A DNA stretch of 64,000 bases from Candidatus Magasanikiibacteriota bacterium (GTDB taxonomy: Bacteria > Patescibacteriota > Patescibacteriia > Magasanikbacterales > UBA922), in assembly GCA_021648085.1 (NCBI GenBank), contig JAKITS010000001.1, positions 45,434-109,433 of the forward strand, written 5' to 3'. The translations under genes and the position numbers were made by a program. Under the pieces are notes generated by a model. That model ran no database searches, was not told the origin of the DNA, and was given only the letters and a program-made list of their open reading frames with translations. Each line of letters opens with the position of its first letter. Within the stretch, counting starts at the first letter, position 1. This document shows, one piece after another, positions 6,831-63,739 of the stretch.

Positions 6831-7532
6831 ATGCAATTTTTAGAGAAAATAAATAATTTTCTAAAGGAAACACTGTTTCCAATTTTTTGTTTGGGTTGTG
6901 ATACAGAAGGTAAGTGGATTTGCGACAATTGTAGATTTAGTTTTGATACAAATGGAATTTTTTTGTGTGCGGTTTGCAAAACACATACAGTTTTTGGAAA
7001 AACTTGCGATAAATGTAAGAAAAAGACAAATTTAGAATCTGTTTGTGCGGTTTTCAATTTCAAGAAAAATTTAAATGCTAGCAATCTGGTAAGTATATGG
7101 AAATATCAATACGCAGAAGAATTGGTAGAAAACATTGATAATTTTGCGCAAGAATTTGCTCGAAGTAATTTTTCTTTATTTTTAGAAATAGATGCGATTG
7201 TTCCAGTTCCACTTCATCCGCGTAGGTTTGCTGAGCGCGGTTTCAATCAGGCTGAAATAATAGCACAAAGTTTGTCAAAAGTTTTGGAAAAACCAGTTGT
7301 GAATTTGTTGAAAAGAAAAAGATATACAAAACAACAAGCAAAATTGAAAAAACACAAAAGAATAAAAAATGTTGTTGGAGCTTTTACCACGCAAAAAGAT
7401 TTTCAAAAATATAATAGAGTTTTGTTGGTGGATGATGTTTACACCACAGGTAGCACAATAAATGAATGCGCAAATGTTTTGCACAGTGGAGGTGTGCAAA
7501 CTGTGGATAGTTTTGTTCTTGTTCGTGGATAA
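6831..7532 (+). CDS. comFC: ComF-family competence protein (phosphoribosyltransferase domain with N-terminal Cys4 zinc finger)
   Basis: N-terminal CxxC..CxxC..CxxC..CxxC; PRTase motif 'VLLVDDVYTTGSTINE'. Confidence 0.8.
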   Translation: MQFLEKINNFLKETLFPIFCLGCDTEGKWICDNCRFSFDTNGIFLCAVCKTHTVFGKTCDKCKKKTNLESVCAVFNFKKNLNASNLVSIWKYQYAEELVENIDNFAQEFARSNFSLFLEIDAIVPVPLHPRRFAERGFNQAEIIAQSLSKVLEKPVVNLLKRKRYTKQQAKLKKHKRIKNVVGAFTTQKDFQKYNRVLLVDDVYTTGSTINECANVLHSGGVQTVDSFVLVRG

Positions 7533-7621
7533 AAAAATACATAAACTATTGACAATTCATAAAATATTTGGTAAATTTATACTTCGTCGATCTTTATATA
7601 AACAAAAAAGGAGGTGTTAAA

Positions 7622-7939
7622 ATGAGTGAGCATTTGTACACAACTCACGAAGGTGATTTTTTGGTAGTTATGCTTGTAGGTGTAATACCTCTTTGTATTG
7701 CAGAGGTTGTAGAGTCTTACCCTTTAAAACTTAAAGTTTGTGAGATTGGACCTTTTGCCAATTTAACAAGATCTGATTTTATTATCCAACCAAAAGACAC
7801 AAAACTACTGCAAGATGATTACTTCAAAGGTACTGATATTTTTTTATCTTCTGTGTATGGTGTTGGCGGTAAGGTTTTGTCTGGTCTAAGATCTCTCGGG
7901 GCAGGAGGTCAAAAACTTTGGGAAATTTTGCCAATTTAA
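7622..7939 (+). CDS. hypothetical protein
   Basis: ORF track starts 7568, but ATG at 7622 follows a strong RBS (aaaGGAGGtgttaaaATG); rho-independent terminator follows. Confidence 0.4.
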   Translation: MSEHLYTTHEGDFLVVMLVGVIPLCIAEVVESYPLKLKVCEIGPFANLTRSDFIIQPKDTKLLQDDYFKGTDIFLSSVYGVGGKVLSGLRSLGAGGQKLWEILPI

Positions 7940-7945
7940 AAATAT

Positions 7946-7978
7946 AAACGATAGTTTTCCAAACTATCGTTTTTTTAC
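7946..7978 (+). terminator. rho-independent terminator (aaacgatagtttt-cc-aaactatcgttt + T-run)
   Basis: perfect 11-bp stem followed by TTTTTT. Confidence 0.7.
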
Positions 7979-8022
7979 TTCAATTAAAAAAACACCAAAT
8001 GAATGATGTTTCAGAGTGTTTA

Positions 8023-8307
8023 TTATTTTTGGTATTTTTTCCAAAAATAAGATCTTTTTATTGTAATTATCGCGAGTATTCCCCAAATTATAGTTATCAT
8101 CAAACGCATTGTTTGTGTTGTATCAAATAGAAATATTATTCCAGAAGATACAAATAATGCAATTAAATTTGTAATATGTATACCTTCAAATTTTGGATTG
8201 CTAGCTAGGTTTGCTTTTACAAAAGATAGTATAATTAGTAAGATTAGCAAAATAACAAGAATAGTATGAGTTAGTATTATTATTTGTTGAAACATGAATT
8301 TCCTCAC
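8023..8307 (-). CDS. small polytopic membrane protein, hypothetical
   Basis: 94 aa, 3 hydrophobic helices. Confidence 0.35.
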   Translation of the reverse strand: MRKFMFQQIIILTHTILVILLILLIILSFVKANLASNPKFEGIHITNLIALFVSSGIIFLFDTTQTMRLMITIIWGILAIITIKRSYFWKKYQK

Positions 8308-8654
8308 TGTCTATTCTTTAATTGAAATGAACCGCTTTTACTTTATATCTTTTTACTATTTTTGTCAATTAATAAGGTATATAAATAAATTATATGTCTT
8401 ATTTTAAATTTCAGTTCCAATAATAGTTTATCCTTCTCCAGTACGGATATTTTTTTTCTAGCCATTTTCTGGTTTTTGCAGTTAATTCTTGTTCTTTTTG
8501 GGGGGTAATCTTTGTGTTCTTTCACTATAATACTTTATGTTCTAAATATTATATTTTTTTAACCTTCTGCGGCAAGTATTATTAGTTTTCCTTTATTTTT
8601 GTAATTATTTTTTTCTCTAAAAAGATCTTTATATGTTCTATCTATTTTTATATT

Positions 8655-8705
8655 TTATAACAAATTTTAAATAAAAACAAAAACCAGCTTTTCAGCTGGT
8701 TTTTG
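8655..8705. repeat. direct repeat copy 1 (ttataacaaattttaaataaaaacaaaaaccagcttttcagctggttttt), includes a terminator hairpin
   Basis: near-identical to 9405..9454; hairpin aaaaccagctttt-c-agctggttttt. Confidence 0.8.
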
Positions 8706-8778
8706 TATTTGCGGAGAAGATTAAATAATATTAAAAAGCTAATTAGCTAAAATATATTATAAAAAATAAATAATTTAT

Positions 8779-9306
8779 TTATTTTTGTTTCAAAACCCGG
8801 TTTATTTCAGATGAAAGTTCTTTCCTTTCTTTTGAAGTTTGTTCGCGTATTTCATTTGCACGAAGTTTACCTGTATTTGGGTTTATTTGCAAGGCTGACG
8901 TAGTAAATGTCAAATCCCCTCCTCCAATATAATTAAAATAAGAATGTGCATTAGTGCTACCAGATTGATATATACCATCTGATATATCCATATAAACATC
9001 TAGATCAATTGTATCTCGTATGTTTTCCAATGCTCGAGATTTTTTTATTTCAGATAGTCTAAATACTGCATGTTCAACAAGTGGATGGTTTTCTTCAAGT
9101 TGAATGCCTGCATTTTTAAGTTTTTCTAAAATTTCTATTTTTAATTGTTCAAAAGAAGGAATATTTTCAAAAGCTTTCTCAATAATATCATTATACTCCT
9201 TTATGTCAATTGATTTATTAGTAAGAATTTCAGCTTCTTGGTCTAACATATCTTTTTTTGCTTCTTTTTGGGAAATAGGTTTTCCCATGCTTTCTTGTGT
9301 TACCAT
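8779..9306 (-). CDS. hypothetical protein (gene flanked by ~50-bp direct repeats)
   Basis: 175-aa ORF, no recognisable motifs; lies between two copies of a terminator-containing direct repeat. Confidence 0.45.
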   Translation of the reverse strand: MVTQESMGKPISQKEAKKDMLDQEAEILTNKSIDIKEYNDIIEKAFENIPSFEQLKIEILEKLKNAGIQLEENHPLVEHAVFRLSEIKKSRALENIRDTIDLDVYMDISDGIYQSGSTNAHSYFNYIGGGDLTFTTSALQINPNTGKLRANEIREQTSKERKELSSEINRVLKQK

Positions 9307-9404
9307 ATGGCAATAAAATTAATTAATTAATAACGAAATTCTATATAAATTTCTACATTTAGTATACTATAATCTTTTTTTTTGCAAGTCTTCTATTTTT
9401 TCTT

Positions 9405-9454
9405 TATAACAAATTTTAAATAAAAACAAAAACCAGCTTTTTAGCTGATTTTTA
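9405..9454. repeat. direct repeat copy 2
   Basis: 47/50 identical to 8655..8705. Confidence 0.8.
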
Positions 9455-9475
9455 TTTTTACAAAAAGGACGGGAT

Positions 9476-9560
9476 TCCTCTCACTCCGATTCGAGCATAA
9501 ATACTGCGCGTACTCGTATCCTTCTCATCCAGACACGAGTAAAGATTTTTACTCGTTCCC
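9476..9560 (-). repeat. tRNA-downstream conserved element (GGATGAGAAGGATACGAGTACGCGCAGTAT..GGAGTGAGAGGAATCC on minus strand), copy downstream of tRNA-Ser(GCT)
   Basis: shares ~55 nt with two tandem copies at 9673-9898. Confidence 0.7.
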
Positions 9561-9568
9561 TTTCTTTG

Positions 9569-9658
9569 CGGAGAGGGCGGGATTCGAACCCGCGGTCCGG
9601 GAAATACCCGGACAACACATTAGCAGTGTGCCGCTTTCGACCACTCAGCCACCTCTCC
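9569..9658 (-). tRNA. tRNA-Ser (anticodon GCT), long variable arm
   Basis: cloverleaf readable: acceptor GGAGAGG/CCTCTCC, D-arm GCTGAGTGGTCGAAAGC, anticodon loop CTGCTAA, T-arm GGGTTCGAATCCC. Confidence 0.85.
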
Positions 9659-9672
9659 AGTATTTTTTGTTT

Positions 9673-9898
9673 TTTAAATTCTTGTGGAGAGAGTGGGATT
9701 CCTCTCGCTCCGACTCGAGCCTGGATACTGCGCGTACTCGTATCCTTCTCATCCCACACACGACACAAGACTTTGTGTCGCTTCTATCCTGCGGAGAGAG
9801 TGGGATTCCTCTCGCTCCGACTCGAGCCTGGATACTGCGCGTACTCGTATCCTTCTCATCCCACACACGACACAAGACTTTGTGTCGCTTCTATCCTG
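9673..9898 (-). repeat. two tandem 108-bp units, each = 18-nt copy of tRNA-Ser(TGA) 3' end (AATCCCACTCTCTCCGCA) + terminator-like hairpin + conserved ~55-nt element
   Basis: units 9673-9790 and 9790-9898 nearly identical; directly abut the 3' end of tRNA-Ser(TGA). Confidence 0.8.
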
Positions 9899-9985
9899 CG
9901 GAGAGAGTGGGATTCGAACCCACGGAGGGCGCAAACCCTCAACGGTTTTCAAGACCGCCGCCTTCGACCACTCAGCCATCTCTCC
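9899..9985 (-). tRNA. tRNA-Ser (anticodon TGA)
   Basis: acceptor GGAGAGA/TCTCTCC, anticodon loop CTTGAAA, long variable arm, T-arm GGGTTCGAATCCC. Confidence 0.85.
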
Positions 9986-10117
9986 AGTTTTATTTTTTAA
10001 AAATATTCAAACAATACGATAATAGTTTATCTTATTTTAAACAATAAGTCAATAGTTTTTATATTTTGTAAAAAACATAAAATATGATATAGTGATTGTA
10101 TATTCTTATATAAATCT

Positions 10118-27793: not shown

Positions 27794-30700
27794 ATGAGAT
27801 TGTTTAAGTCAAAATTTTTCCTATCAATATTTTTTACACTAGTTGTAGTTTCTTTATTTTTTGTTTCGGATATAACTGCTGTTTTTGCACAGCAGGCAGA
27901 TACTTTTGGTTTGGTGGAGGTCGGTCAAGTTACCGAGCTTGGAACGCAAGATATTCGTGTTACAATTGCAAAAATAATAAGAACACTCTTAGGTTTGTTG
28001 GGTGTTTTGGCTGTGTCTATTGTTTTATACGGAGGTTTTGTATATATGACTGCTGGCGGAAGTGAAGATAAACTTGGGCAGGCAAAGAAAATAATTATAA
28101 ATGGGGTTATTGGTTTGGTGATAGTTATGTCTTCTTTTGCAATTACACAGTTTGTCTTGTCGAGCCTTTCAGATGCAACAGGCTCGGGTAGTGTTGGGCT
28201 GTCTTCAAATAATTGTTCAAATACAGAATATGCTATAAACCATCCAAGTGAATGTTTTTCAAATTCAAATTCAGCTTGCACAAAATTTCCATCTTTTTGT
28301 AATTCAGCAGACTTCTTTTTTGTAAAAAGCATAACACCTTCTACACCAAACGGAGCAACAGGAATGAATAATATTGTTATAAGAGCAGTATTTAGTAAAT
28401 CTTTAGCATCAAATACAAATGTAGATTCTATATTTTCAGTTGAAAAAGATGGTATTTCTCAGCCTTTATCTATAAAACTTTCTCAATCTAGACAGGTGGT
28501 GGAGGCAACATTTAGAGCTACCACACCTTTGTGCGATGGGACTGTTCCACCAAATGAAACTTGTTTAGAGTTGGGTGATTTTACTATAAAAATTAATCCA
28601 GATATAAAAGACACAACAGGTAGAGAATTAACAAAAAATATAAATGGGCAGGAGTACCCTGTTTCAGCAGATTTTTCTGTGGATGTTGAGAACATAGACC
28701 ACACAAGACCAACTGTCACAAGTATGACAATAGATGGTTCAAATGCAGAAAATCAAAATATTACAATTGGAGATGCACATTCACTTAGAGTTGCAATGAT
28801 AGATAATACTGGAATTGGTTTTGTAAATATAAACATAAAAAATATAGACACAGGAAAAGTTATAGTAGAGTCTTTTGAGGGTCCAAATCCACTGGACGGA
28901 TCTTCTGGGGAATTTGTTATAGATTATCCTATTATATTGGGGGCTGATATAAATTCACTAGATAGATTTGATGTTTCTGTCACAATTTACGATATAGATC
29001 ATAATAGTAGTGTAAGTATTTTAAGCTTTATAGCTCTAGCAGAGAGCTGTACTAATGGTGTTCAAGATGGAGATGAAACAGGTGTTGATACTGGTGGTTC
29101 TTGCTCACTTTCTTCTGGTAGTTTTTGTGATGAAGATTGGCAGTGTGCCTCTCAAAAATGTGTAAACAACGAGTGTGTTGCTTGGCCAATGATTACAGAT
29201 ATTGATGCTTGGGATGGTGGATCTGGAAACTGGATTACAATTGCAGGACAGTTTTTTGGAGATAAGGAAGGTCTTGTTGAGTTTGGTACAGATTCCAATG
29301 GGGATGGCGAGATAAACGACTTAGATGTGTGGGTTAAAGCCGGTATTGCTATTTGTAGGAGTTTAACTACATGGAAAAACGATTGGATTGTAGTCCAGGT
29401 CCCAGATGATTCAGTTTTGCCAATAGGTTCAGAAAGTGCAATTCGTATTACTCTTGGAGACGGTACAGGGCTTAGTGATTCTACTGTCGATAGTCATGGT
29501 TCCATATCTGGACCAAACAATGGTTTGTTTACAAAAAACGAAATAAAAAGACCTAGTATTTGTGCCGTTGAATCTGTTTTGGGTTCTAATTCAGCAAAAC
29601 CAGATGCTGGTTTTGCTGTAATAGGAAAAAACTTCACAGACGATAAAACTGGAAATAAATTTGAGTTTGGTGGTGTAGAATTACCAACATTAATATGGGG
29701 AGATTTGGAAATTACAAGTAAAATACCGCTAAATACAAATGCTGGTAAGGTCTCTGTTCAGGTTGAGGTTGGTGGAGAAAGAAGTAATACAGTTCCTTTT
29801 ACTGTTTTGCCAATTGATAAAAATTTAATACCTTCAATTTCACTTGTAAACCCAGAAAATATAACAGTAGGAAGTTTTGTTACGCTTTCTGGAACTGGTT
29901 TTGGTGAAACAACAGGAATTGTTTATATATCTCCAAATTCTGGTGCTACTTGTACAGATATTTTGGCAGAAGGTTGTATTCAGGTGGAAGTTTCTTTACC
30001 AAATTTTTGTGGAGATACTTGGAGCTCTAATCAGGTTATTATAAAAATTCCAGATAACACACAATTTGGTGTGTACTATTTGGTTTTACAAAATGATTTT
30101 GGACTTCGTACAGATGGATCAGCTTTTGTTTCTGTTGTTGAGGGAGACCCTAGTCCTAGCATTTGTAAGATGATTCCACAGGCCGGGCCAGCACCACTGC
30201 CTGTTGGACATCAGGGTTTAGAATTTTTTGGGATTAACTTTTCTACAGACCCAACAGTATATTTTTGGTCTAAAACCGCAACAGAAGACGATCTTAATAC
30301 TTGGTTGAACGCAACAGGGAATGATGTAAATCAAATAGATCCGGATACTCATATTGTGAGTTATATCCCGAGTACGATAGAAGGATATTCAATGAAAACA
30401 GGTCCAATTGCCATCAGCTCTATCGATGGTGTTGTTAGTAATGCTGTAAATTACGAGGTTTCAGATTGTCGTGATGTTGGTGCTCCTGTTGGGTATCAGT
30501 GTTGTTCTGTTGGGCCAGACGCTGGAACAATAAAACCAAATGAATTTATTTGTGCAGGAGAGACAAGAGATGCTGGCTATGCTTGGAGATTTACGAGTGG
30601 TCTCCTGCCAAATATACCTTTTGTGGTCGAACAGTGCCCAGAATCAAGCGGTTCCGGAGTACCATCTCCAAGTCCCTGGATAAATAGAAAGCAGGGAGCA

Positions 30701-33700
30701 AATACTTGTTTAAATGCTTTGCCAACAGTTTTGTTTAGTGTGGGAATGAGTGATAGCTCACTTTCAGGAAATATTAGAGTTATTACTTGTGGAGAAGATA
30801 GTTTGCCACAGTGTGAAGATGAGGATATTTTTATTGATGTGTCTGCAGATTTTTCTGCTGGTCTGCGGTCTGAAGGATTTGTTTTAAACTTAACTAATAG
30901 TAATGGGGATTTAACACCAAACACTTGGTATAGGGTTGAACTTGGAAGTGGTTTGCAATCTCAAGAAATTAGGAGTATTTTGGGTATAGATCAGACAGTA
31001 AATGAAAACCTTTTAAAAACAAAATCTTGTGGAGACGGAACTTCTTATTGTTTTGAATTTAAAACAGGAGAAGGTTTATGTACCTTAACTTCTGCAGGTA
31101 TAATGCCAGGTACTCATACAACAAAAATACTAGGTCCTGTTTTGGACAGAAGATTTTCAAAAGAAAGTGAAACTTCACTGTTCTACCATATATTTGGAAA
31201 AGGAGATCAAGAGTGCACGGTTTTAGATGTTGATGGTTTCGGCTGGGACTGGAAGAGTCAAGATGATAATAAGGCAACTGTTGAGATAAGTGTTGGAGAT
31301 GGTTTTGTAGATACTAGAGCAATTGTAAATGCTATAGAAAATACAGCACCAGGAGATGTGAATATTTTTGCAATTTCAAGTAATTCACCTATCTCTCCTG
31401 TAAGTAGTTTAATTATAGATTTAGCAGATCCAAAAGTAGAATCGTATTGGCCAAACTGTGCAGAATCTTGTGTAAATAGTGGTGTTGGTGTCAAATTCAA
31501 CAGAGATATGAATGTTGCTGAATTTGTTTCAAATTTTAGGATAAGTGAGTGTATAGATGAATTTTGTAGTATCACATCAACCATCCCAATACAGTTTGAA
31601 ACTCTGAAAAAAAATAATTTAAATGTATTTCCTGTTGGAAATCTACAGCCAAACACTTGGTATTTTGTAGAGGTTTTTCCAGGAATTCATGCTATAGAAA
31701 AAGAAAATCCTCTTACTTATGGTAAAACAGTGGAAGCTTTTTCTTGGAAGTTTAGAACAAAAAATGACAGTACACTTTGTGGGATTGAGGATGTTTTGGT
31801 TGCCCCAACAAAATATATATCGCGTTTAATAGGAGATAGAAAAGAATATAAAGCAACTCCAATGAGTTTAGCAAATGAGTGTAGTTCTGCTGGACAAAGA
31901 TTAAATCCTTGGAATTTTGCATGGGGTTGGGAGGTCGTGGATACTCAAATAGCTAGTATCTCCTCTTTTGAAACTTTTGGAAAGTCAAAACCATTTTGCA
32001 CAACCTCTTGTTTGTTGGCAGGAAGTGTTGTGAGTTCAGATACTCAAAATGTAACTGCTTTGTGTGGAAATGGGATATTGGAGAGTGGGGAAGACTGTGA
32101 GTTGGATGACCCAGAAGAAGTATTAGGGGTTAGCTGTAGTTTAAGTTGTAAAAGAGTTGGGTCTGTAGCACCAACTTGTGGAGATGGGAGGATAGAATCG
32201 GCAAAAGGTGAGCAATGTGATACAGACGATGCTCTAACAGCCGAGGCTTGTAATGATAATTGTTTGTGGAAAGGTTCTTCAAAAGTAGAGCCAAAATCAA
32301 CAGCGCTAAATATTTCTTGGTGTGGAAGTGGTTCTGTAACATTTGGCGAAAGTTGTGATATTAAAGATCCGCTAACGCAAGATAGATGTTCAAATAAGTG
32401 TTTGAATTTGGGAACGCCTATCTCAAGTTATTGGTGTGAGCAAAATAAAACAAACGAATTACCAGACACAACTTTGGTAGGGCAGTCTGCAGAGTGTTTA
32501 TCTTCTGTAAGTATTTGTGGAAACGGATTATTGGAAAATGGAGAAGCTTGTGAAATCATTGCTAGTACTACTGTTGCGTTTGTGGGTGTTGGAAATGTTA
32601 CAGTTTCAAATGCTTCAGATGTTTGCTCTACTTCTTGTTTAGTTTCAAATGCTTGTGATGAACCAAACATGCCAACCTCAATAAGCTGTGATCCAAAGAT
32701 AGAGGAAGGTTGCACGCCAGAGTGTCTAAATTCTGGCTCATCTCTCGACTATTCAACACCTAGTCTGTGTAACGATGGAATTGTAGGGTTAGGGGAAGAT
32801 AGTTTATGTGAATTATCATCTACCGTACCTTTTGGTCAAAATCCATTGCAAATTGTAACAGCTATTGGAGATGGTGTTGTAAATCCAGATACAAATTCTC
32901 AAGATACACAAATAAGAGCTAGAGCTACAAAAACAAAAGATATAAATGGAAATCCTGTTGATATATCATCAGAATATGGAGAATCTTTATATTCATTACA
33001 GTGCGGATATACAAAATTTGAAGAGCTAATAAATAATAGATTTAACGACTGCCCTAATGCTATTGATGGTGTTGCTACGAACTCTTGTTGTTATACCAGA
33101 CCTCAAAGAGTAAGTGAGTATCCTGTGGATGGTTCTGGGATTGGAAATTCTAGTGCACCAGTTTGTTTGAATTCTTTTATAGAGGTTCATTTTGATGAAG
33201 AGATAAGCAAGTCTTCTGTAAGTGAAAATATATTATTAGCAAAAGGTTATCCGGGTGGATATGATTGTTCTGTAAGTGGAGAGGATAATGTGACAGAACA
33301 GGTGAGAAATTTACTTACTTTGCAAGAAGTAAAAGATGGAATTTGGACAAGGGTTTGGAAGGTTATAAAAAGATTTTTTACAAAAGCTGTTGGTTTGGAA
33401 GTTTTTGCAAGTATGTTTAGTGATTCAGATGTAGAGGTTTGGTGTGTGGGATCTGCAAATTTTAGAACAGATGTCTTGTATGAGGAAGATGTTGATGGAA
33501 ATATACTTTCCACAGATATTTCTATTTCTTTAACAAAGCTTTTGGATGTAGATACTGTTTATGCTGTAGTTTTGAAAAATGAAATTGAAAATTCTGAAGG
33601 TGTTGGAATATCTAGTCCAGATAGTTTAAGTGGTACTTTGGATGATTCATGGATTTTTAAAACTGGAGACGAGGTTTGTAAGATAGACAGCGTTTTTGTA

Positions 33701-36700
33701 AGACCGAGTGCAAAATTATTTGTAAAACCAAACACAACTAGCACTTTTTTTGCATTAGCTCAGAGTACTTCAAAACAAAGAATTGTGCCAATTGAAAATG
33801 TGTATGATTGGGAATGGCATTGGGCACCATTAAATAATGCAATTTTTGATATTTCTGCTTCAACTAGTTCTATAAATATAATAGCTTCTAAAGATTTAGA
33901 AGGAAGTGTTCTTGCAAGTGCAAATGCTGTAATTACTCACGACGCAGATCAAAACAATAGTCAGTTTGGAGAGTATTTTACCGGAATTACAAAATTGTTT
34001 GCTTTATTTTGTGAGAATCCTTGGCCACAATACGAATATTTTCCTTTTGAAGAAGGTATATCTTTTGGATCTTTGGGAAATATAAGTGGTTTTGAGCGGG
34101 GAGTTTTTGATGGCTCTACAATTCCAAAAGTTAGAATAGGTGGAGTATTTGAGTACTTTAATTTCAGTATGTCTTATTGTGCGGATAGTGGATCTTCTGA
34201 TAATAAAGCAGACGATCTTCCGTTCCTAAAACCTATTGTTCTTGTAAATGAATTTGATGTAGTTTCTGGTAATTTAGTTCAAGTTGGTGATAAAAGTTTG
34301 TCTGAGGATACTTTAAAAAAATTCTTCTTTTTCAATGAAAAAAATGATGATGTAATTGGTGTTCAAATTTTTATGAATCCGCTCAGGCTTACTGCCCGTG
34401 AATGGTATATAGAAAAATTTGGATCAGACATTGGAATGGATCAAATAACAGTTGCAGGTTATGATGCGTTGTCAGATAATAATAGTATTTATATAAACGC
34501 ACTAAATCAAGGTTCAAATGGAGATATTTATAATAATATTTACTTATTCAGTTTAAATGGAAGTGCGCAATCAAACACCCGTGAAGTTTTTGATATGTTG
34601 ATGGACTCACTTAAAATGAATATAAATATAAGTGAGTTTAATAGTTGCTCACAAGATGGGGATTTTAACACACCAAATATACAAGAAACAGTAGAGTGTA
34701 GCACAGACTTCGAATGTTTAGATGTTGCAGATTCTGGAGGGGTTTGCGCAAATGCACAGACAAAATTCAAAAGAGATTGGACGCGTCTAACAGACTTAAG
34801 GAATACTCAAGAAAAATTAGATTTTTATAAATTAGAAAATAATTCTTATCCAAAATTAGCTTCTGGATCTTTTATTCCAAACTACACAGTTTCCAAATGG
34901 TCATCTTGGGGAAACTTAAGTAATCTAATTGGTGGAGCGCCGTTAGATCCAGTAAACAAGTGGTCCGATTGTGGTGATTTGGATCCACAGACTTGTTGGG
35001 CTGCAGATGTTTCTGAATATGTTTGTCCAGAAAAAACTAGTGTGTACGAATATTCTTTTGACAGTATAACTAGTGATTACACGCTTCACATCCCTTTTGA
35101 ATATTTTGATTTATCCTCATCTGTAGTTTCAGGATTTTTGGACACTTCAAAAATTAAAATAGACAGGTGGTGTACACCGGGCGACATATATAACCCATCT
35201 TCTGGTGTGTGTGGAGATGGTGTAGTAAATGTTGGTGAACAGTGCGACCCTCCAAATTCTATAAATTACACAAATCAAGGTGTGGTTGGATCACAACAAT
35301 CTGGTTTTTGTGCAGATAGTTATTTGAACCAATCTATTTCTTGTATAAATTCAGCAGATTGTGGTTTATATTTGAATGTTGATGTTGAGCGATCAAAAAA
35401 GAGTATTTTTTCAGATACTGGTTCTGTTTGTTTCGGTGGAGTAGCAAAAGATTTACCATACGACATTTTAGCACATAAAAATGATGAAAGTAAATTATAT
35501 GGAATTAGTTGCCAAACATCTTCTGATTGTAAGTCTAAGGAAAATTATTTTAAAAATTTAACAGCAGGCGGATCTGGTGTACTTGGATTGTACAATGTTC
35601 AAAATGATAGTTTTGCTGAAGAGTCTTTAATTGGTGAATTTATATATAAAAACTTAGATGGAATAAAATGTCTTTCTTTACGGGATTTAGATATAGAATT
35701 TAGAAATGCTGGAAGTGGGACAAGGGGTACAAAACCTGTGGAGTGTAGTATTTCTACAAGTAATCCAATAATTGGATCTTGTAATAATGTAGGAGAATTG
35801 GCGCCAGCTCAGTGTACAGATAAGTGTACAATTAAATATGGAAGTTGTACTTCTTTTACAGACTGTGGAAACGGAAGGGTCGAAATTGGAGAAAATTGTG
35901 ATGATGGTGTAAAAAATGGAGAGTATGGAAGTTGTAATTTAACTTGTGATGGAGTTAGTGATCAGTATTGTGGAAATGGTCAAAAAGATGGTGCAAATGA
36001 AGTTTGTGATATAAATAATTTGGGTTTATCTGGATATTGTAGCAAAGATAAAAACATAAGCTGTTCTGATGATTTGGATTGTGGTGAGGTTAGAAATTTT
36101 GGTAGTTGTGGATATGAATATGTTTCTAATGTTCTAAAGCCTGTGTGTTCCTCAATAGATAGTAATGGTAATGTCCAACTTTCAAATTATCAGAATGGAA
36201 CGCAAGTGTTTTGTTATGACAACAGTTGTGATAAATTCGATAAAATTTATGGAACTTGTATTGCATCAAGTGATCCAACATACAGTTTTAATAAAGATAA
36301 TACTTGCGCTTGGGATTGTCAGGATTTTGGAGATTATTGCGGAGATGGAATTGTGCAAGGTGATTACGAAGCTTGCGATGATGGAAATTCAATAGACGAT
36401 GACAGTTGTGATAATTTTTGTGAAATTAATCTTTTAGCTACCACAAGTCAAGCAAGCTCTGCACCAAGTTGTGGAGATGGTGTGGTAGAAGAAGATGGTA
36501 CAGAAACTTGTGATTTGGGAGAGGATAATGGAATTAAATGTAGTCCATCTTATGGAGAATCTTGTAGTTACTGTTCACTAGATTGTGAAAATATTTTGAC
36601 AGTGGACCCTGTCGCGTATTGTGGAAATGAGACTGTTGATTTTAAATTTAATGATTTTAGTGATTGTTCAGATACTGGGAATATTTGCTTATCCGAACCT

Positions 36701-37981
36701 GTTTATGAGGCTTGTGATTTAAATAATAATAAAGTAGTCAAAAGAACTTCTTCTGGTCAAATATTAACACTTGAATGTGAAGACCAAGGCGCTTATTCGT
36801 GTAATAGTTGTAATGCACTTTCAGACAATTGTGCCAAATGTGTACTAGATACTTCAGGATTACTATCTGTTCCAAAAATCGCAATCCTAAATCCAATGAT
36901 AGGAAATGTGGAGCCTTTGGACAAAAACAGTGTGGATCGTTGGGGTTTTGAAGAGACTTTAGTTTTGGTGAGGCCAGAACCACCTGCAGGTTTTATTCAA
37001 AATCCTTATTTTGGATTTACAAGGCTTACAATGGAAAGTAGTATATATAAAGATCCAACACAGCAAAACTATATGATGGTTGAAAGTGGAACTGGTACTT
37101 ATGCACCTTATAAAGAACACACAATAGAAGGTAATGATTTATGTAGCGGAGAATATGGCGTTTATTTCAGTAATAAAGCTATATTTAATGCTGTAAATGG
37201 TTCAGAAGAAGGTTTTGAGGATAGTTATACAGATTTAACTCGTGGGGATCTTTATGATTATCCAGTAGACGGAACTGCTGAAATAAACAATGAAATAGTA
37301 TATTCTCCAGCTGTGCCACTAGAAGTATTTAGAGTAGTTGTAAAATGGACAGATAAGGAAGCTCGCTCAAATGTTTCGTTTAGTGGAATTGTTCAAAGTA
37401 ATTTTCTAAATCCAGCAGGAGAGTTGAACGGGGCTACTACATTTACAGACGCTGCTGCAGACAGAAAAATATGTAATCAGATAGGTTTAGTGAGTAATTT
37501 TCCAATAGAAGGTAGAAGTTTACCTAACTTTAATGAGTTTAGCAAATATTGGTGGCCAGAAAATACAGCTTGTGCTTACAATAAAAGAATCTATGTACAC
37601 CCAGAAGGAAGTATGGCTAGAACTTATACACAGTCTTTTACTATAGATACTTATAATGATAATGCAGACTATTCTTTTGTTGTGCAAGCTGTAAGTGGTT
37701 CTTTGGAAGGTTCACCAATAGCATCATTTCAGAATAGTAATTTGGAAGTAGAGGTGTACACTCATCACAGTGGACAGGTTCCTAGGGTTTCGGTTTTTAA
37801 ACCTACTCACACTTTCAAAATTAACCAATCACAAAAAAGCAGTAATAATGTGGCAAGATATTGGAGTGTATTTAATATTAAGAGGGTTTCAACCTCAGAA
37901 GGTTCAAAATATGAAATTCAAGCAATAGGAACAAACGGAAGTATAGAATCAACTTGGGATGAGGTTGTTCCTAATTTTTAA
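27794..37981 (+). CDS. giant (3395 aa) secreted/membrane-anchored cysteine-rich protein: VirB2/TrbC-like N-terminal domain + IPT/Ig-like modules + multiple Myxococcus-type cysteine-rich repeats (CG[DN]G...GE.CD)
   Basis: single uninterrupted ORF; >15 'CG(D/N)G..E.GE.CD(D)' repeats between aa ~1380-2600; start ATG 2 nt after previous stop. Confidence 0.6.
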   Translation: MRLFKSKFFLSIFFTLVVVSLFFVSDITAVFAQQADTFGLVEVGQVTELGTQDIRVTIAKIIRTLLGLLGVLAVSIVLYGGFVYMTAGGSEDKLGQAKKIIINGVIGLVIVMSSFAITQFVLSSLSDATGSGSVGLSSNNCSNTEYAINHPSECFSNSNSACTKFPSFCNSADFFFVKSITPSTPNGATGMNNIVIRAVFSKSLASNTNVDSIFSVEKDGISQPLSIKLSQSRQVVEATFRATTPLCDGTVPPNETCLELGDFTIKINPDIKDTTGRELTKNINGQEYPVSADFSVDVENIDHTRPTVTSMTIDGSNAENQNITIGDAHSLRVAMIDNTGIGFVNINIKNIDTGKVIVESFEGPNPLDGSSGEFVIDYPIILGADINSLDRFDVSVTIYDIDHNSSVSILSFIALAESCTNGVQDGDETGVDTGGSCSLSSGSFCDEDWQCASQKCVNNECVAWPMITDIDAWDGGSGNWITIAGQFFGDKEGLVEFGTDSNGDGEINDLDVWVKAGIAICRSLTTWKNDWIVVQVPDDSVLPIGSESAIRITLGDGTGLSDSTVDSHGSISGPNNGLFTKNEIKRPSICAVESVLGSNSAKPDAGFAVIGKNFTDDKTGNKFEFGGVELPTLIWGDLEITSKIPLNTNAGKVSVQVEVGGERSNTVPFTVLPIDKNLIPSISLVNPENITVGSFVTLSGTGFGETTGIVYISPNSGATCTDILAEGCIQVEVSLPNFCGDTWSSNQVIIKIPDNTQFGVYYLVLQNDFGLRTDGSAFVSVVEGDPSPSICKMIPQAGPAPLPVGHQGLEFFGINFSTDPTVYFWSKTATEDDLNTWLNATGNDVNQIDPDTHIVSYIPSTIEGYSMKTGPIAISSIDGVVSNAVNYEVSDCRDVGAPVGYQCCSVGPDAGTIKPNEFICAGETRDAGYAWRFTSGLLPNIPFVVEQCPESSGSGVPSPSPWINRKQGANTCLNALPTVLFSVGMSDSSLSGNIRVITCGEDSLPQCEDEDIFIDVSADFSAGLRSEGFVLNLTNSNGDLTPNTWYRVELGSGLQSQEIRSILGIDQTVNENLLKTKSCGDGTSYCFEFKTGEGLCTLTSAGIMPGTHTTKILGPVLDRRFSKESETSLFYHIFGKGDQECTVLDVDGFGWDWKSQDDNKATVEISVGDGFVDTRAIVNAIENTAPGDVNIFAISSNSPISPVSSLIIDLADPKVESYWPNCAESCVNSGVGVKFNRDMNVAEFVSNFRISECIDEFCSITSTIPIQFETLKKNNLNVFPVGNLQPNTWYFVEVFPGIHAIEKENPLTYGKTVEAFSWKFRTKNDSTLCGIEDVLVAPTKYISRLIGDRKEYKATPMSLANECSSAGQRLNPWNFAWGWEVVDTQIASISSFETFGKSKPFCTTSCLLAGSVVSSDTQNVTALCGNGILESGEDCELDDPEEVLGVSCSLSCKRVGSVAPTCGDGRIESAKGEQCDTDDALTAEACNDNCLWKGSSKVEPKSTALNISWCGSGSVTFGESCDIKDPLTQDRCSNKCLNLGTPISSYWCEQNKTNELPDTTLVGQSAECLSSVSICGNGLLENGEACEIIASTTVAFVGVGNVTVSNASDVCSTSCLVSNACDEPNMPTSISCDPKIEEGCTPECLNSGSSLDYSTPSLCNDGIVGLGEDSLCELSSTVPFGQNPLQIVTAIGDGVVNPDTNSQDTQIRARATKTKDINGNPVDISSEYGESLYSLQCGYTKFEELINNRFNDCPNAIDGVATNSCCYTRPQRVSEYPVDGSGIGNSSAPVCLNSFIEVHFDEEISKSSVSENILLAKGYPGGYDCSVSGEDNVTEQVRNLLTLQEVKDGIWTRVWKVIKRFFTKAVGLEVFASMFSDSDVEVWCVGSANFRTDVLYEEDVDGNILSTDISISLTKLLDVDTVYAVVLKNEIENSEGVGISSPDSLSGTLDDSWIFKTGDEVCKIDSVFVRPSAKLFVKPNTTSTFFALAQSTSKQRIVPIENVYDWEWHWAPLNNAIFDISASTSSINIIASKDLEGSVLASANAVITHDADQNNSQFGEYFTGITKLFALFCENPWPQYEYFPFEEGISFGSLGNISGFERGVFDGSTIPKVRIGGVFEYFNFSMSYCADSGSSDNKADDLPFLKPIVLVNEFDVVSGNLVQVGDKSLSEDTLKKFFFFNEKNDDVIGVQIFMNPLRLTAREWYIEKFGSDIGMDQITVAGYDALSDNNSIYINALNQGSNGDIYNNIYLFSLNGSAQSNTREVFDMLMDSLKMNINISEFNSCSQDGDFNTPNIQETVECSTDFECLDVADSGGVCANAQTKFKRDWTRLTDLRNTQEKLDFYKLENNSYPKLASGSFIPNYTVSKWSSWGNLSNLIGGAPLDPVNKWSDCGDLDPQTCWAADVSEYVCPEKTSVYEYSFDSITSDYTLHIPFEYFDLSSSVVSGFLDTSKIKIDRWCTPGDIYNPSSGVCGDGVVNVGEQCDPPNSINYTNQGVVGSQQSGFCADSYLNQSISCINSADCGLYLNVDVERSKKSIFSDTGSVCFGGVAKDLPYDILAHKNDESKLYGISCQTSSDCKSKENYFKNLTAGGSGVLGLYNVQNDSFAEESLIGEFIYKNLDGIKCLSLRDLDIEFRNAGSGTRGTKPVECSISTSNPIIGSCNNVGELAPAQCTDKCTIKYGSCTSFTDCGNGRVEIGENCDDGVKNGEYGSCNLTCDGVSDQYCGNGQKDGANEVCDINNLGLSGYCSKDKNISCSDDLDCGEVRNFGSCGYEYVSNVLKPVCSSIDSNGNVQLSNYQNGTQVFCYDNSCDKFDKIYGTCIASSDPTYSFNKDNTCAWDCQDFGDYCGDGIVQGDYEACDDGNSIDDDSCDNFCEINLLATTSQASSAPSCGDGVVEEDGTETCDLGEDNGIKCSPSYGESCSYCSLDCENILTVDPVAYCGNETVDFKFNDFSDCSDTGNICLSEPVYEACDLNNNKVVKRTSSGQILTLECEDQGAYSCNSCNALSDNCAKCVLDTSGLLSVPKIAILNPMIGNVEPLDKNSVDRWGFEETLVLVRPEPPAGFIQNPYFGFTRLTMESSIYKDPTQQNYMMVESGTGTYAPYKEHTIEGNDLCSGEYGVYFSNKAIFNAVNGSEEGFEDSYTDLTRGDLYDYPVDGTAEINNEIVYSPAVPLEVFRVVVKWTDKEARSNVSFSGIVQSNFLNPAGELNGATTFTDAAADRKICNQIGLVSNFPIEGRSLPNFNEFSKYWWPENTACAYNKRIYVHPEGSMARTYTQSFTIDTYNDNADYSFVVQAVSGSLEGSPIASFQNSNLEVEVYTHHSGQVPRVSVFKPTHTFKINQSQKSSNNVARYWSVFNIKRVSTSEGSKYEIQAIGTNGSIESTWDEVVPNF

Positions 37982-56341: not shown

Positions 56342-56451
56342 CCTGTTTTTATAATACGTTTCTTAATTTTTTAAAAGTATTTAGTAGGTAGCCTATGTTT
56401 CCTTTTTTACTTAATCGGCATTACTTACTTTGTCTAGTTTGCTTTCTTTTG

Positions 56452-56847
56452 TGGAGATGCTGGGAGTCGAACCCAGGTCTAGAGCGGGTTGCATAAGCGT
56501 TCTACATGTTTAGTTATTTTTGTTTTGAACTATAATTTAATAGAATAACAAAAGCAATTATAGCGTGCTTGTATGCAATTTCAAAACATATCTACAAGTA
56601 AAATATGTTTCTACACTCGATTAAGTTTACACCGCATGATTGCTATCGAGAATCACAGTTGCGATGGTTTCGGCAATTAAGCCAAAACAGATGCGAATGA
56701 AGGAGTAGTAAATGCGTTAGCAAATACATTCTTCACTCTTGATACTACTTTTGCGTTTGTAGATTGTTTTATGGATTTATGAGGTATAAAACACCCTCAA
56801 CATGCCCGTATATACAACTTGGCCGTCTATCGAAGCCTGTCACCCCC
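56452..56847 (-). ncRNA. ssrA: tmRNA (SsrA), predicted tag peptide ~ANAFTTPSFASVLA*
   Basis: 5' end GGGGGTGACAGGCTTCGATAGACGG (cf. E. coli GGGGCTGATTCTGGATTCGACGGG); 3' tRNA-like end GCATGTAGAACGC...CCTGGGTTCGACTCCCAGCATCTCCA; immediately downstream of smpB. Confidence 0.75.
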
Positions 56848-60983: not shown

Positions 60984-62504
60984 ATGAGCAAGGACAATGA
61001 CAATAATCACGGTTCGGAAATTTTGGAACTTGAAGTTGGTGGGGCTGACCTCCTTTTCAATGAAGGGGAGGCAGAAGATGTTGTCGACGCTTTGGCGGAG
61101 ACGACACTTGTAAATGCAGTTGTGGAAGAAGATGTTTCTTTCACAGTCATTCCCAGCCGAGACCAAGAAGAGGAGATTCAAAACCTCCTCGGAGCTCTAG
61201 GGAAAACAGGTGAGGAGTCTCCAGAAGACTCACTTCAAGCTTTCTCCAAAAGTGGGGATGACGAGGAGTGGAAACCTGCAGTAGTGGTGGAGGCTGAGAA
61301 GTCTACCACCAAAAAACAGGCAGCTGGAGCTCACCAAAAAGTAGAGGTTTTTTCCTCCAAAAAAATCCCGATAGGAACTCCAATTGGACTTCCTCATGGG
61401 AATACTCCCAGAATCCGAAAGGATTTGGGTGGGGTGCAGGAGATCTTGAGGGAGGATGGAACATCCAAACTCAAGGCTGTTCCTATGGATGGGAATACTT
61501 TAACAGCTCCTGTCACGGAGTTGTCGGAGTCTGCACAAGAGGAAGAGTTTTTCAAAGGTGGTGACACTCCACCAAAAGGCTTCAAAGCTGTTCAAAAAGA
61601 TGGTGAAAATCGTCTTGGAGATACATGGGTCGATGAAGATCCATCGTGGTTCGACCGAAACAGCTCAAGCATTTTGGGGTTTGGGATTATCGCTATTGTG
61701 GCGGTAATTCTTTCACTGGTGTTTTTGACTTTGGACATAGCCAAAGCTCCAAACCTCTCGACAGAGGAGCAGACCGCCGAAAAGTCGATAAGTTCCGAAA
61801 AACTCTTTCCTCCCACTTCAGATTCTTCTTCGGAAGAGGAGAAATGGACAGAGGAGGAAAAGAGAAACTTGGAGTCGGAAAAGGCTTTGTCACTTGCTGA
61901 GGAGAATCGCGAAAAGGCAGAAGATCTAGCAGAAGAGTTAGTTTCTTCCGCTACGAGCGCATCTCCAACTACCTCTCCTATTGGATTGGGAAGTACTACA
62001 GGAGCTCTTGATGTGGTGACAACAACAATCGGTGATGATTCTTCGAAAGAGGAAGTCGTTGTTGAAGTCAAAGAAGAAGTTGACTATTCCGAAGCATATG
62101 AAAATATACAAGGAGAAGTTGGTGGACTCGCCGAAGATGTTGAACTGTTCGCAGTCGATGTTCTCGGTGCGATTTCTGAAACTACTTGGCTTACTGTACG
62201 CACTCAACTTGCTAAAGAGGGTTCCGTCGCCGAAACCGAGGAAACAGATTCAGATGATGATTTGGACATTGAGTTCGAAGTCTCTGATGAACCTTCGGGT
62301 GGTGGATATTTTGATATGTCCACAGACGAAATTCTCGCACTAGACTACACAAATCCTCGCGGTGAGGATGATTGTGTGGCTATTATGAGTAGAGCTGGAT
62401 CGGACGAAGTTGGTGAGTTCGAAGGTATGCTCTGTTGCAGAAATCTCCAGATTCTTTCTGGAAAAGATGTGACAGATTGTCAAATTAGAGTGGAAAACTT
62501 TTAG
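60984..62504 (+). CDS. acidic single-pass membrane protein with novel C-terminal Cys domain (..DYTNP.GEDDC...GMLCCRNLQI...DCQIRV); visibly higher G+C than surroundings
   Basis: 506 aa; central TM 'ILGFGIIAIVAVILSLVFLTL'; C-terminal ~55 aa shared with 63209..63739. Confidence 0.5.
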   Translation: MSKDNDNNHGSEILELEVGGADLLFNEGEAEDVVDALAETTLVNAVVEEDVSFTVIPSRDQEEEIQNLLGALGKTGEESPEDSLQAFSKSGDDEEWKPAVVVEAEKSTTKKQAAGAHQKVEVFSSKKIPIGTPIGLPHGNTPRIRKDLGGVQEILREDGTSKLKAVPMDGNTLTAPVTELSESAQEEEFFKGGDTPPKGFKAVQKDGENRLGDTWVDEDPSWFDRNSSSILGFGIIAIVAVILSLVFLTLDIAKAPNLSTEEQTAEKSISSEKLFPPTSDSSSEEEKWTEEEKRNLESEKALSLAEENREKAEDLAEELVSSATSASPTTSPIGLGSTTGALDVVTTTIGDDSSKEEVVVEVKEEVDYSEAYENIQGEVGGLAEDVELFAVDVLGAISETTWLTVRTQLAKEGSVAETEETDSDDDLDIEFEVSDEPSGGGYFDMSTDEILALDYTNPRGEDDCVAIMSRAGSDEVGEFEGMLCCRNLQILSGKDVTDCQIRVENF

Positions 62505-62642: not shown

Positions 62643-63080
62643 GAGATATTTCGACTCCGTTTCACTGCGCTCAATATGACGTAAAATAGTCATGTCATCC
62701 TGAGCGGAACAAAGTAAAGTCGAATGGATCTCGAGACAATATCACTTTTTCACACGTCATCCTGAGCGAAGCCGAAGGATCTCGAAACAGAATCACAGAG
62801 TATAAACATTAAAAATCACACACGTCATCCTGAGCGAAGTCGAAGGATCTCGAAACAGAATCACAGAGTACAAACATTAAAAACCACACACGTCATCCTG
62901 AGCGAAGTCGAAGGATCTCGAAACAGAATCACAGAGTACAAACATTAAAAACCACACACGTCATCCTGAGCGAAGTCGAAGGATCTCGAAACAGAATCAC
63001 AAAGTACAAACATTAAAAACCACACACGTCATCCTGAGCGAAGTCGAAGGATCTCGAAACAGAATCACAGAGTATAAAAG
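62643..63080 (+). repeat. repeat-family array: reverse copy (62643-62681), variant forward copy (62694-62752), then 5 tandem 68-bp units (62753-63080)
   Basis: period 68 bp (not a multiple of 3); units differ by only 1-3 SNPs, i.e. the inter-repeat segments are identical rather than spacer-like. Confidence 0.85.
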
Positions 63081-63208: not shown

Positions 63209-63739
63209 GTGAAGGAGAAAACAATGTCCGAAGAAAAAAAAGAAAAAAAAGAACAAGAAGAACAAGAAGAACAAGAACAAAAAGAACAAGAAGAACAAGA
63301 AGAACAAGAAGAAGAGAGGGAGGTGGAGACACCTCTCAAGGAGAAAAAGACAATAAATTGGATTTGGGGAGCGCTTGCCATTTGGGCAAGTGTTCTCGTG
63401 ATTTGGGGATTGGCGAGTATTTTCTCCTCGGACGATGAGTTCGTAGAGAAAGAGTCGTCACCGCCGCCACCAGTGGTAGTGGCAACAACTTCAATCCCAA
63501 CTCCAATTTTATTACCTCCAACACCTATTGTGGTGAACGGGGTATGCTCATATCTTCCGGATTATACAAATCCCGGAGATGAGGACTGGTGCGTGAAAGT
63601 CGCACAGGAGGCAAAGAGACTTTGTTCTGGCGAAGATGCAGAATTCTACGGCATGCTTTGCTGTAGGAATTTGCAGATTAAAATCGACGACGATGTCGTC
63701 GATTGTCAGATTCGAGTCTCTAGTGTTTTTTATAGATAA
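63209..63739 (+). CDS. acidic (EEQ-repeat) single-pass membrane protein with the same C-terminal Cys domain (paralog of 60984..62504)
   Basis: 'DYTNPGDEDWC...YGMLCCRNLQIKIDDDVVDCQIRV'; TM 'WIWGALAIWASVLVIWGLASIF'; Pro-rich linker. Confidence 0.5.
   Translation: MKEKTMSEEKKEKKEQEEQEEQEQKEQEEQEEQEEEREVETPLKEKKTINWIWGALAIWASVLVIWGLASIFSSDDEFVEKESSPPPPVVVATTSIPTPILLPPTPIVVNGVCSYLPDYTNPGDEDWCVKVAQEAKRLCSGEDAEFYGMLCCRNLQIKIDDDVVDCQIRVSSVFYR

Follow-up and report, generated by a model that had tools for sequence, protein, structure and literature searches.

Knowledge of the RtT RNAs of tRNA trailers dates back to the late 1970s, when tyrT was sequenced, and to the rtT RNA paper of 1991; Escherichia coli rttR comprises the 178-bp repeats of the tyrT-tyrV operon. 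To our knowledge RtT (RF00391) has been described in Gammaproteobacteria only, with no description from Patescibacteria, and we know of no function ever established for it. Bösl and Kersten (1991) are said to have linked E. coli rtT to recovery from amino acid starvation. That link is repeated by later papers (bioRxiv 10.1101/2024.07.17.603846; PMC4986893), and in Pasteurellaceae RtT RNAs next to other tRNAs have been seen by Northern blot (PMC4986893). Here we analyze a 64-kb stretch from a Candidatus Magasanikiibacteriota bacterium of the Patescibacteria, or candidate phyla radiation (CPR). In this stretch, called the window and used for all positions unless another contig is named, a tRNA-Ser operon wholly on the minus strand carries three structured units, U1 to U3, directly behind its tRNA genes. 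We consider it likely that these units belong to the RtT type of tRNA-trailer RNA in a miniature and divergent form, without being members by the Rfam rule.

Trailer units behind two tRNA-Ser genes

U1 (107 nucleotides [nt], long form, positions 9792 to 9898) begins 1 nt past the discriminator of tRNA-Ser(TGA) and is followed by U2 (107 nt, 9685 to 9791), which differs from it only in the discriminator copy, A at 9685. U3, again a long form (9461 to 9568, the end being approximate), likewise begins 1 nt past the discriminator of tRNA-Ser(GCT). A sequence-only reading of the window had placed two 108-bp tandem units and a related third one at 9476 to 9898. The layout of two units after the first tRNA and one after the second holds, and the feature does lie there, but Tandem Repeats Finder gives a period of 107 (2.1 copies, 100% matches, 9686 to 9915) and the units reach to about 9461, all on the minus strand. 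A 30-nt core block, GGATGAGAAGGATACGAGTACGCGCAGTAT, occurs in three exact minus-strand copies in the 64 kb, at 9861, 9754, and 9530, where shuffles lead one to expect 0. The reuse of tRNA 3' ends, also claimed in that reading, is confirmed for U1 and U2, as the 19-nt end GAATCCCACTCTCTCCGCA is found at the tRNA and again at the ends of U1 (0 mismatches) and U2 (1 mismatch) against a chance expectation of 0. In U3, by contrast, the copy of the tRNA-Ser(GCT) end is degenerate, matching at 14 of 19 positions, and all five differences are C to T.

Each unit is a tRNA minus its D and anticodon arms, with a core of ~50 nt in place of the T loop. The closing helix has two strands that repeat parts of the upstream tRNA: the 5' one is degenerate and matches its acceptor and T-stem 5' strands, and the 3' one repeats its last 19 nt almost exactly. 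Read 5' to 3', U1 consists of CA, GGAUAGA, AG, hairpin A, UGU, GUGGG, AU, GAGAA, P2, AG, the P3 region, GGA, AU, CCCAC, UCUCUCC, and G. The acceptor-like 5' strand GGAUAGA (9896 to 9890) is one change from the tRNA acceptor 5' strand GGAGAGA, and hairpin A (8 to 9 bp in the fold, 9887 to 9868), which marks the long form, takes the position of the long variable arm of a class II tRNA. Helix P1 pairs GUGGGAU (9864 to 9858), in which GUGGG is the T-stem 5' strand of the upstream tRNA with AU added, with AUCCCAC (9806 to 9800), which is AU plus the T-stem 3' strand CCCAC. The core begins with AUGAGAAGG and is made up of AU-GAGAA, with GAGAA (9857 to 9853) as joining segment J1/2, then P2 with its conserved loop (in U1, GGAUAC/GUAUCC at 9852 to 9847 with 9835 to 9830, loop GAGUACGCGCA), a small P3 (region 9827 to 9809), and GA-AU. 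The acceptor 3' copy UCUCUCC (9799 to 9793) and the discriminator copy G (9792) complete the unit.

Hairpin A and the structure closed by GUGGGAU/AUCCCAC, both proposed in the sequence-only reading, are present in the minimum-free-energy fold (-39.3 kcal/mol; z = -2.6 to -2.9). In this fold an acceptor-like stem is followed by hairpin A and by a three-way junction that a T-stem-like helix closes; minimum-free-energy folds of whole units give this minihelix with a three-way junction in most cases. The U3 core is 90% identical to that of U1; its hairpin A has another sequence in the same shape (ACGAGUAAA/UUUACUCGU), G.U pairs occur in its P2 and P3, and its degenerate 3' copy pairs with the 5' strand AGAAAGGG.

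Neither ARAGORN nor the Rfam tRNA model calls any of the units as a tRNA gene or pseudogene, and only the acceptor and T stems are recognizable. An Rfam search at E values up to 10 over 9380 to 10040 returned no ribozyme or riboswitch, the matches being tRNA, RtT, and tRNA-driven partial ones (sX4 and plastid untranslated-region models); over the same range and limit, no covariance model of hammerhead, twister, pistol, hatchet, or hepatitis delta virus-like ribozymes matched. The string GAUGAG was considered as a hammerhead core and rejected, as it has G and G where C3 and U4 would be needed. Reading the junction as a k-turn or tandem G.A motif was likewise given up, since this misfits the standard strand order and the arrangement is not conserved in E. 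coli or Salmonella.

Relationship to RtT RNA

Across 4227 Rfam families, RtT is the top match for six units (for U1 and U2, the best non-tRNA match): U1, U2, and four units from relatives described below, L020 X1, L020 X2, L016, and L001. Scores range from 18.8 to 22.9 bits (E = 0.018 to 0.19), with U1 at 18.8 bits, U2 at 22.9 bits (E = 0.018), and the other four at 19 to 21.6 bits. In the opposite direction we used a covariance model, R1, built from an alignment of ten distinct cores (A1) that contains CPR units only. R1 gives 81.7, 79.7, and 58.6 bits for U1, U2, and U3, respectively, and matches all four units of the E. coli tyrT-tyrV region (L031) in register, weakly, at 9.7 to 16.2 bits; the Rfam RtT model gives those four units 133 to 137 bits.

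The likeness lies in the architecture. Like the CPR units, RtT units stand immediately behind a tRNA gene, share its strand, and are often in tandem. Both end with the last ~19 nt of the upstream tRNA (19/19 in U1, 18/19 in U2, and 14/19 in U3), and the E. coli and Salmonella units have the same ending; the annotated E. coli rtT RNA (L031, 1267 to 1437) runs from 7 nt past tRNA-Tyr to exactly the copied CCA. In both, the outer helix is a copy of the T and acceptor stems, and the Rfam consensus GgGaaGGAUGAGAA...AAUCCuuCcC aligns column for column with GUGGGAU-GAGAAGG...GGA-AUCCCAC. The order of motifs is shared as well: a T-stem copy plus AUGAGAA(G), CUCG-N8-CGAGAG, GCCCGAAGGGCGA, and AAUCC plus the tRNA 3' end. 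In E. coli the sequence of a unit is GCGGGG-AAGG-AU-GAGAAG ... CUCGAGCGCCAGCGAGAG ... ACCCGAAGGGCGAAG ... GAGUA-AU-CCUUC-CCCCACC-ACCA, that is, the acceptor/T-stem 5' copy, AUGAGAAG, two hairpins, and the tRNA 3' end. Of these hairpins, CUCGAGCGCCAGCGAGAG corresponds to P3 of the long CPR form and ACCCGAAGGGCGAAG to P3 of the short one, and in a joint alignment the CPR and E. coli blocks follow the same order. Flanks that fit the local tRNA are already a property of the known family, since Salmonella has, after tRNA-Pro(CGG), two annotated RtT units whose flanks copy the tRNA-Pro stems (E. coli has one unit at this place), and the Pasteurellaceae RtT RNAs are in line with this.

The differences are those of a smaller RNA in another phylum. 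The CPR core measures 45 to 55 nt compared to ~105 nt, with two of about five internal hairpins kept, and the long and short CPR forms retain different ones. Instead of the full hairpin set of the 130-position Rfam model, the units have P2 and one hairpin, and 29 to 66 model positions are skipped. CPR units carry neither an encoded CCA nor an open reading frame (ORF) like tpr, and they are found in Patescibacteria behind tRNA-Ser, tRNA-Asp, and tRNA-Tyr, whereas RtT is known from Gammaproteobacteria.

The tpr ORF of E. coli rtT, which is protamine-like, raises the alternative that the units encode a small arginine-rich peptide from the conserved AUG of AUGAGAAG. E. coli tpr does start at this motif and stops in a conserved GAGUAA, and every CPR unit begins with AUG-AGA-AGG (Met-Arg-Arg). 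However, the length of the frame varies, from 4 codons in the sister species (AUG AGA AGG AUG UGA) to 7 in L020 X1 and 36 in U1, the variation tracks base pairing and not codons, and a properly spaced ribosome-binding site is lacking. With ORF lengths from 4 to >36 codons, Tpr-like coding was rejected, and a peptide product appears scarcely credible.

Relatives in other Patescibacteria

Relatives came from one scan of species-representative genomes and one metagenome scan. L002 to L005, L013, L014, L017 to L019, L021, L023, L025, and L034 to L037 were set aside as chance pattern matches. The sequence-only reading had asked whether the element is conserved outside its locus, and it is: the core also stands behind tRNA-Asp, tRNA-Tyr, and tRNA-Ser(CGA) in other genomes. 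In the Patescibacteria genome L001 it follows tRNA-Asp(GTC); the last 19 nt of this unit repeat the tRNA-Asp 3' end, and a terminator comes next. Metagenome contig L016 has a unit after tRNA-Tyr(GTA), and L015 and L020 have two diverged tandem units after tRNA-Ser(CGA) (X1 and X2 in L020, with 90% core identity). L015 also contains a unit without a tRNA directly upstream, X0, whose 5' strand GGA[GGU]GAGG-GUGGG is acceptor nt 1 to 7 fused to T-stem nt 49 to 53. In every relative, the closing strands match the T stem and acceptor stem of the immediately upstream tRNA.

A sister species (VanW 77% identical) has an 86-nt short-form unit at the orthologous site, behind a tRNA-Ser(TGA) that is identical to that of the window at 86 of 87 positions. 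The short form has no hairpin A, and its P3 is CCC-AAA-GGG. One contig of this species holds one unit and another holds three, although both encode an identical VanW protein; unit copy number is unstable. Among more distant Magasanikbacteria, four genomes with the same gene order have no unit on reading of the sequence (L010, L011, L029, and L030), a fifth (L028) has none as judged by tight tRNA spacing and the absence of a model match, and L026 retains a decayed relic. The U1 core is 84% identical to that of the L001 tRNA-Asp unit versus 63% to that of the sister-species unit at the orthologous site. The distribution of units is thus patchy and at odds with host phylogeny.

With filters off, R1 finds only U1, U2, and U3 in the 64-kb window and no copies away from the tRNA operon. 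Matches in a phage collection were confined to the tRNA part (phage tRNA-Ser genes), a plasmid collection gave none, and two patterns run on viral contigs found no member apart from one E. coli-type RtT. A literature search on tRNA-linked repeats in CPR yielded nothing specific.

Several of these contigs have further peculiarities at their tRNA genes. In L016, at 7981 to 8275 (plus strand), a group I intron (8017 to 8217; 40 bits with Rfam Intron_gpI) splits the anticodon loop of tRNA-Tyr(GTA), a gene that ARAGORN did not call, and the RtT-like unit lies 3' of this gene. On the same strand, at 7742 to 7850, an intact tRNA-Thr(TGT) is followed at once by a partial tRNA-Thr copy (anticodon arm, T stem, and 3' end) whose T loop is likewise interrupted at the corresponding position, by another insert of 38 nt (TTCG-insert-GAAT), an architecture like that of the units with an unrelated core. 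This copy hints at a more general process. At ~225 to 300 of L015 (minus strand), AT-rich DNA separates a 5' half unit (GGAGGTGCGAGCGGGATTTGAAGGG) from a downstream tRNA-Ser(CGA). The 3' end of this tRNA could act as the missing 3' half, and it looks from the sequence as if the tRNA gene sits inside a unit. In the more distant Magasanikbacteria contig L009 (4727 to 5360, plus strand), both tRNA-Ser genes have unrelated GC-rich trailers, and a GIY-YIG-like ORF fragment lies between the two genes; 15 nt of the tRNA-Ser(TGA) end and its trailer (CCTCCGCCACGAAAA) are repeated ~125 nt downstream, around an unrelated insert.

Selection on RNA structure

RNAalifold applied to A1 recovers P1, P2, and P3. 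In pair counts, 96% of cells are paired, compared to 28 to 54% when partners are slid by 1 to 3 columns, and the covariation score is reached by none of 500 shuffles. P1 is 100% paired across the 10 sequences. Changes on both sides are seen in 6 of 15 pairs and in 4 of the 6 pairs of P2, which reads GGAUAC/GUAUCC in the window versus GGAUGU/ACAUCC in the sister species. The stems are retained while the stretch between acceptor and T stem varies freely. This pattern of change indicates that selection is acting on the RNA structure of the core. Where pairs depart from Watson-Crick, they are mostly G.U as read on the tRNA-sense strand (as in U3, X1, and L008c), and the five C-to-U changes in the 3' copy of U3 retain pairing with its 5' strand; together, the G.U bias and the U3 changes point to an RNA made from the tRNA strand.

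Such conservation bears on the notion that the units are neutral by-products, namely, partial tandem tRNA duplications (pseudo-tRNAs) that arise by unequal crossing-over or slippage and decay without function. U1 and U2, 100% identical up to the discriminator copy, speak for recent duplication, copy number is polymorphic, and both the pseudo-tRNA-Thr of L016 with its other T-loop insert and the decayed unit of L026 would fit. The core, however, is not tRNA derived and yet is conserved over tRNA types and genomes, the compensatory changes keep P1, P2, and P3, and decay is unequal, with stems kept, all of which makes this origin highly improbable. The evidence instead favors a structured RNA linked to the tRNA precursor, an option named in the sequence-only reading, where the RtT architecture went unmentioned.

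Weight of the RtT assignment

We judge it probable that the CPR units and RtT share common descent. Several results weigh against a closer assignment. The Rfam gathering threshold for RtT, 45 bits, is reached by none of the six units; inner cores without their flanks have modest similarity to E. coli RtT (shuffle P of ~0.007 to 0.02 for four units, nonsignificant for two); and R1 scores 5.4 bits on the Salmonella tRNA-Pro RtT units. For these three reasons we call the units a reduced, RtT-related variant and not a member by the Rfam rule. In addition, about six independent unit lineages underlie the covariation counts, the 561-nt operon folded whole gives a mixed structure with alternative cross-pairings between repeats, and cotranscription with the tRNAs, excision by tRNA-processing enzymes, and stability are predicted features of the units. 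The analogy with RtT would account for form and processing and not for purpose. The patchiness in Magasanikbacteria supports a different view of the core.

In that view the core is a selfish element, a nonautonomous parasite of tRNA genes whose structure is kept only to be harmless to processing. Its spread would rely on recombination at the near-universal sequence of the T loop (GGTTCGAATCC, where the unit has GAATCC) or on an enzyme acting in trans, and its flanks would then adapt to the local tRNA. The core stands behind at least five different tRNAs in CPR, just as RtT stands behind tRNA-Tyr and tRNA-Pro in enterobacteria, the half unit of L015 is interrupted by a tRNA gene, and inheritance is not vertical, given the closer similarity of the U1 core to the tRNA-Asp unit of L001 (84%) than to the sister unit at the orthologous site (63%). 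Against it, a Pfam scan of 30 ORFs of the window (most of those of at least 200 amino acids and the small ORFs adjoining units) yielded no transposase, integrase, or reverse transcriptase. Terminal inverted repeats are lacking, all copies in the 64 kb lie at tRNA genes, and the phage and plasmid collections gave no match. Moreover, the diverged tandem of L020 X1 and X2, together with motifs conserved between CPR and E. coli, speaks for purifying selection on the core over the long term. The miniature mobile element suggested in the sequence-only reading therefore finds support in the patchy, nonphylogenetic distribution and none in transposition machinery or terminal inverted repeats; as to miniature inverted-repeat transposable elements, scattered copies are absent from the 64 kb, and the sole inverted repeat is P1, which is tRNA specific. 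We regard the selfish element, the foremost alternative, as unlikely, noting that it is partly compatible with an RtT-type RNA and may go together with a function.

Possible integration at the tRNA 3' side

The repeated block runs from the T loop to the tRNA 3' end, which calls to mind the attachment (att) sites of integrative elements. T-loop-class att sites, a comparison for which Williams 2002 is reportedly the source, likewise present a direct repeat of the 3' part of a tRNA, starting at the T loop, downstream of the intact tRNA. The units could then be attL/attR pairs with a short remnant left after deletion of T-loop integrative elements, and tandems would result from accretion. It is in keeping with this that in the sister species the 3' side of the tRNA pair is a hot spot of insertion and that ~1.9 kb of small ORFs at this side of the window is lacking in L010.

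The position that U3 takes in the window, on the 3' side of tRNA-Ser(GCT), is occupied in the sister-species contig L006 (87 to 5336) by an island that adjoins the tRNA gene and encodes a large serine recombinase, a Rep protein, and an EcoRI-like methylase; the ORF call for the recombinase runs antisense through both tRNA genes. In the window, the small ORFs (7540 to 9430) have no Pfam match and lie between a comF-like gene (6831 to 7532) and the tRNA operon, while in L010 only 35 nt separate the end of the comF-like gene from the tRNA. The 7540-to-9430 stretch may be what is left of DNA once inserted on the tRNA 3' side.

The units themselves differ from att sites in several respects. The insert measures 70 to 90 nt (the repeats bound 88 nt), a structured core lies between T-stem halves where att would hold only the 7-nt loop, and the same core recurs at unrelated tRNAs with compensatory changes, which a recombinase-binding scar would not give. 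No integrase or other recombinase gene was found, either inside the att-like element or among the 30 ORFs, and allowing up to 3 mismatches, copies of the tRNA end occur only at 9567 to 9915, so that no distal att copy marks an island. The island of the sister species is bounded by no unit, and a serine recombinase makes no such duplication. The sequence-only reading had called for a search for a cognate integrase and a look at sister genomes: the window ORFs hold no such enzyme, and the orthologous tRNA-Ser(TGA) site holds one or three units. Its doubt over a plain integrase footprint is thus well founded, with no integrase, no distal repeat, and a ~50-nt core conserved with compensatory changes, and we consider such a footprint very unlikely.

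Putative operon layout and a model for the proposed RtT-type units

Both tRNA-Ser genes and the three units are bracketed on one strand by a single promoter-like site and a single terminator. The promoter-like site TTGACT-17-TAAACT (10024 to 10052, minus strand), a putative operon start from a consensus scan alone, lies ~38 nt 5' of tRNA-Ser(TGA). This gene (9899 to 9985, minus strand; called by ARAGORN, Rfam tRNA 59.5 bits) has discriminator G at 9899, followed by CA, with CCA not gene encoded. Between U2 and tRNA-Ser(GCT) (9569 to 9658, minus strand; ARAGORN, Rfam tRNA 63.3 bits) is an A-rich spacer of 26 nt (9659 to 9684), in which the consensus scan found no promoter-like site. Behind U3, an intrinsic-terminator-like hairpin, CAGC-UAAAAA-GCUG (9447 to 9434), with a U run (9425 to 9447 in all, minus strand), was flagged in the scan and is the putative operon end.

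On the plus strand, long ORFs of 112 to 144 amino acids run antisense to the tRNAs and units at 9566 to 10000 (144 amino acids), 9628 to 10047, and 9684 to 10022. They owe their length to a GC-rich stretch without stop codons, in a window with a G+C content of ~32% on average. For annotation, this means that the GC-rich units yield spurious antisense ORFs that a gene caller could report and that the units can be mistaken for att scars.

In the model that we propose, the two tRNA-Ser genes and three units would be transcribed as one operon, as the promoter-like site and terminator suggest. Because the units mimic the acceptor/T-arm half of a tRNA, they should be excised by tRNA end-maturation enzymes: RNase P, together with RNase Z or exonucleases and possibly the CCA-adding enzyme, would generate stable RNAs of ~85 to 107 nt. 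RNase P would cut on the 5' side of a unit, leaving the upstream tRNA with a 2-nt trailer, and RNase Z or exonucleases would trim the 3' side and halt at the copied discriminator. The 19-nt repeated tRNA ends may serve as a substrate for unequal recombination that changes the tandem number, which would explain copy numbers of 1, 2, or 3, and may also drive gene conversion that keeps the 3' copy identical to the tRNA. As to its likeliest role, a reasonable if speculative guess is that the freed RNA could be a mimic of the uncharged tRNA acceptor end that binds a conserved factor through its core, which would fit the reported starvation link of rtT.

Other features of the window

Elsewhere in the window, a 68-nt tandem repeat (4.8 copies, 97% identical; 62751 to 63078, plus strand) with a hairpin (GTCATCCTGAGCGAAGTCGAAGGATCTC) in each unit has no Rfam family match. 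It is intergenic, between ORFs at 60984 to 62504 and 63209 to 63739 that have similar C termini (..MLCCRNLQI..DCQIRV). The window also encodes a transfer-messenger RNA (56449 to 56847, minus strand) with a 25-residue tag, AKVVSRVKNVFANAFTTPSFASVLA, and a single ORF of 3395 amino acids (27794 to 37981, plus strand). An exact-protein lookup of a 175-amino-acid ORF that neighbors the unit locus found no match.

Implications

What is conserved between the CPR units and RtT is the architecture, a tRNA minihelix with a core in exchange for the T loop, and not the tyrT context. The CPR units are much smaller than RtT, yet they are recognizable and occur behind several tRNAs, as a miniaturized variant in a phylum that is, as far as we know, new for RtT-type RNA. 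The minimal core of ~45 nt, backed by compensatory changes, is directly testable for partners or processing. That the same core stands behind unrelated tRNAs with perfectly fitted flanks bears on the evolution of tRNA genes and on concerted evolution by recombination. A broader reading, which we put forward tentatively and would not rate as the likelier outcome, is that RtT-type units form an old or horizontally traveling, bacteria-wide class of tRNA-minihelix RNAs. Reduced CPR genomes would expose its minimal core of ~45 nt (AU-GAGAAGG, a helix with a conserved loop, and a small hairpin), and the RNAs would be either mimics of uncharged acceptor ends that titrate or signal to a conserved tRNA-binding factor or enzyme-free parasites that use the universal T-loop sequence.

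Comparison with other known systems

Besides RtT, the sX4 small RNA of Xanthomonas (RF02223) deserves comparison. In its Rfam model a tRNA-Ser is joined to a trailer whose end, GGGGGGUGAGA, is a T-stem copy with UGAGA behind it. The model matches the window at 9856 to 9989 (minus strand) with 41 bits, below the gathering score of 70 and with most of the score from the tRNA-Ser itself. The same link, between a tRNA-Ser with the start of an RtT-like trailer and the sX4 model, concerns L008 and L015. The Northern signal of sX4 is 280 to 300 nt, longer than a tRNA (PMC3300014). Read from the Rfam model and not from a Xanthomonas trailer, this suggests, as a lead only, that sX4 itself is a tRNA-Ser plus the start of an RtT-like unit.

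A further parallel concerns processing. In E. coli 3'ETS-leuZ and in eukaryotic mascRNA from MALAT1, a tRNA or tRNA-like fold sets the cleavage that frees a second stable RNA. The CPR units have no sequence or structural relation to either; the likeness lies in the processing logic predicted for them, by which a tRNA-like fold would direct the release of a separate RNA.

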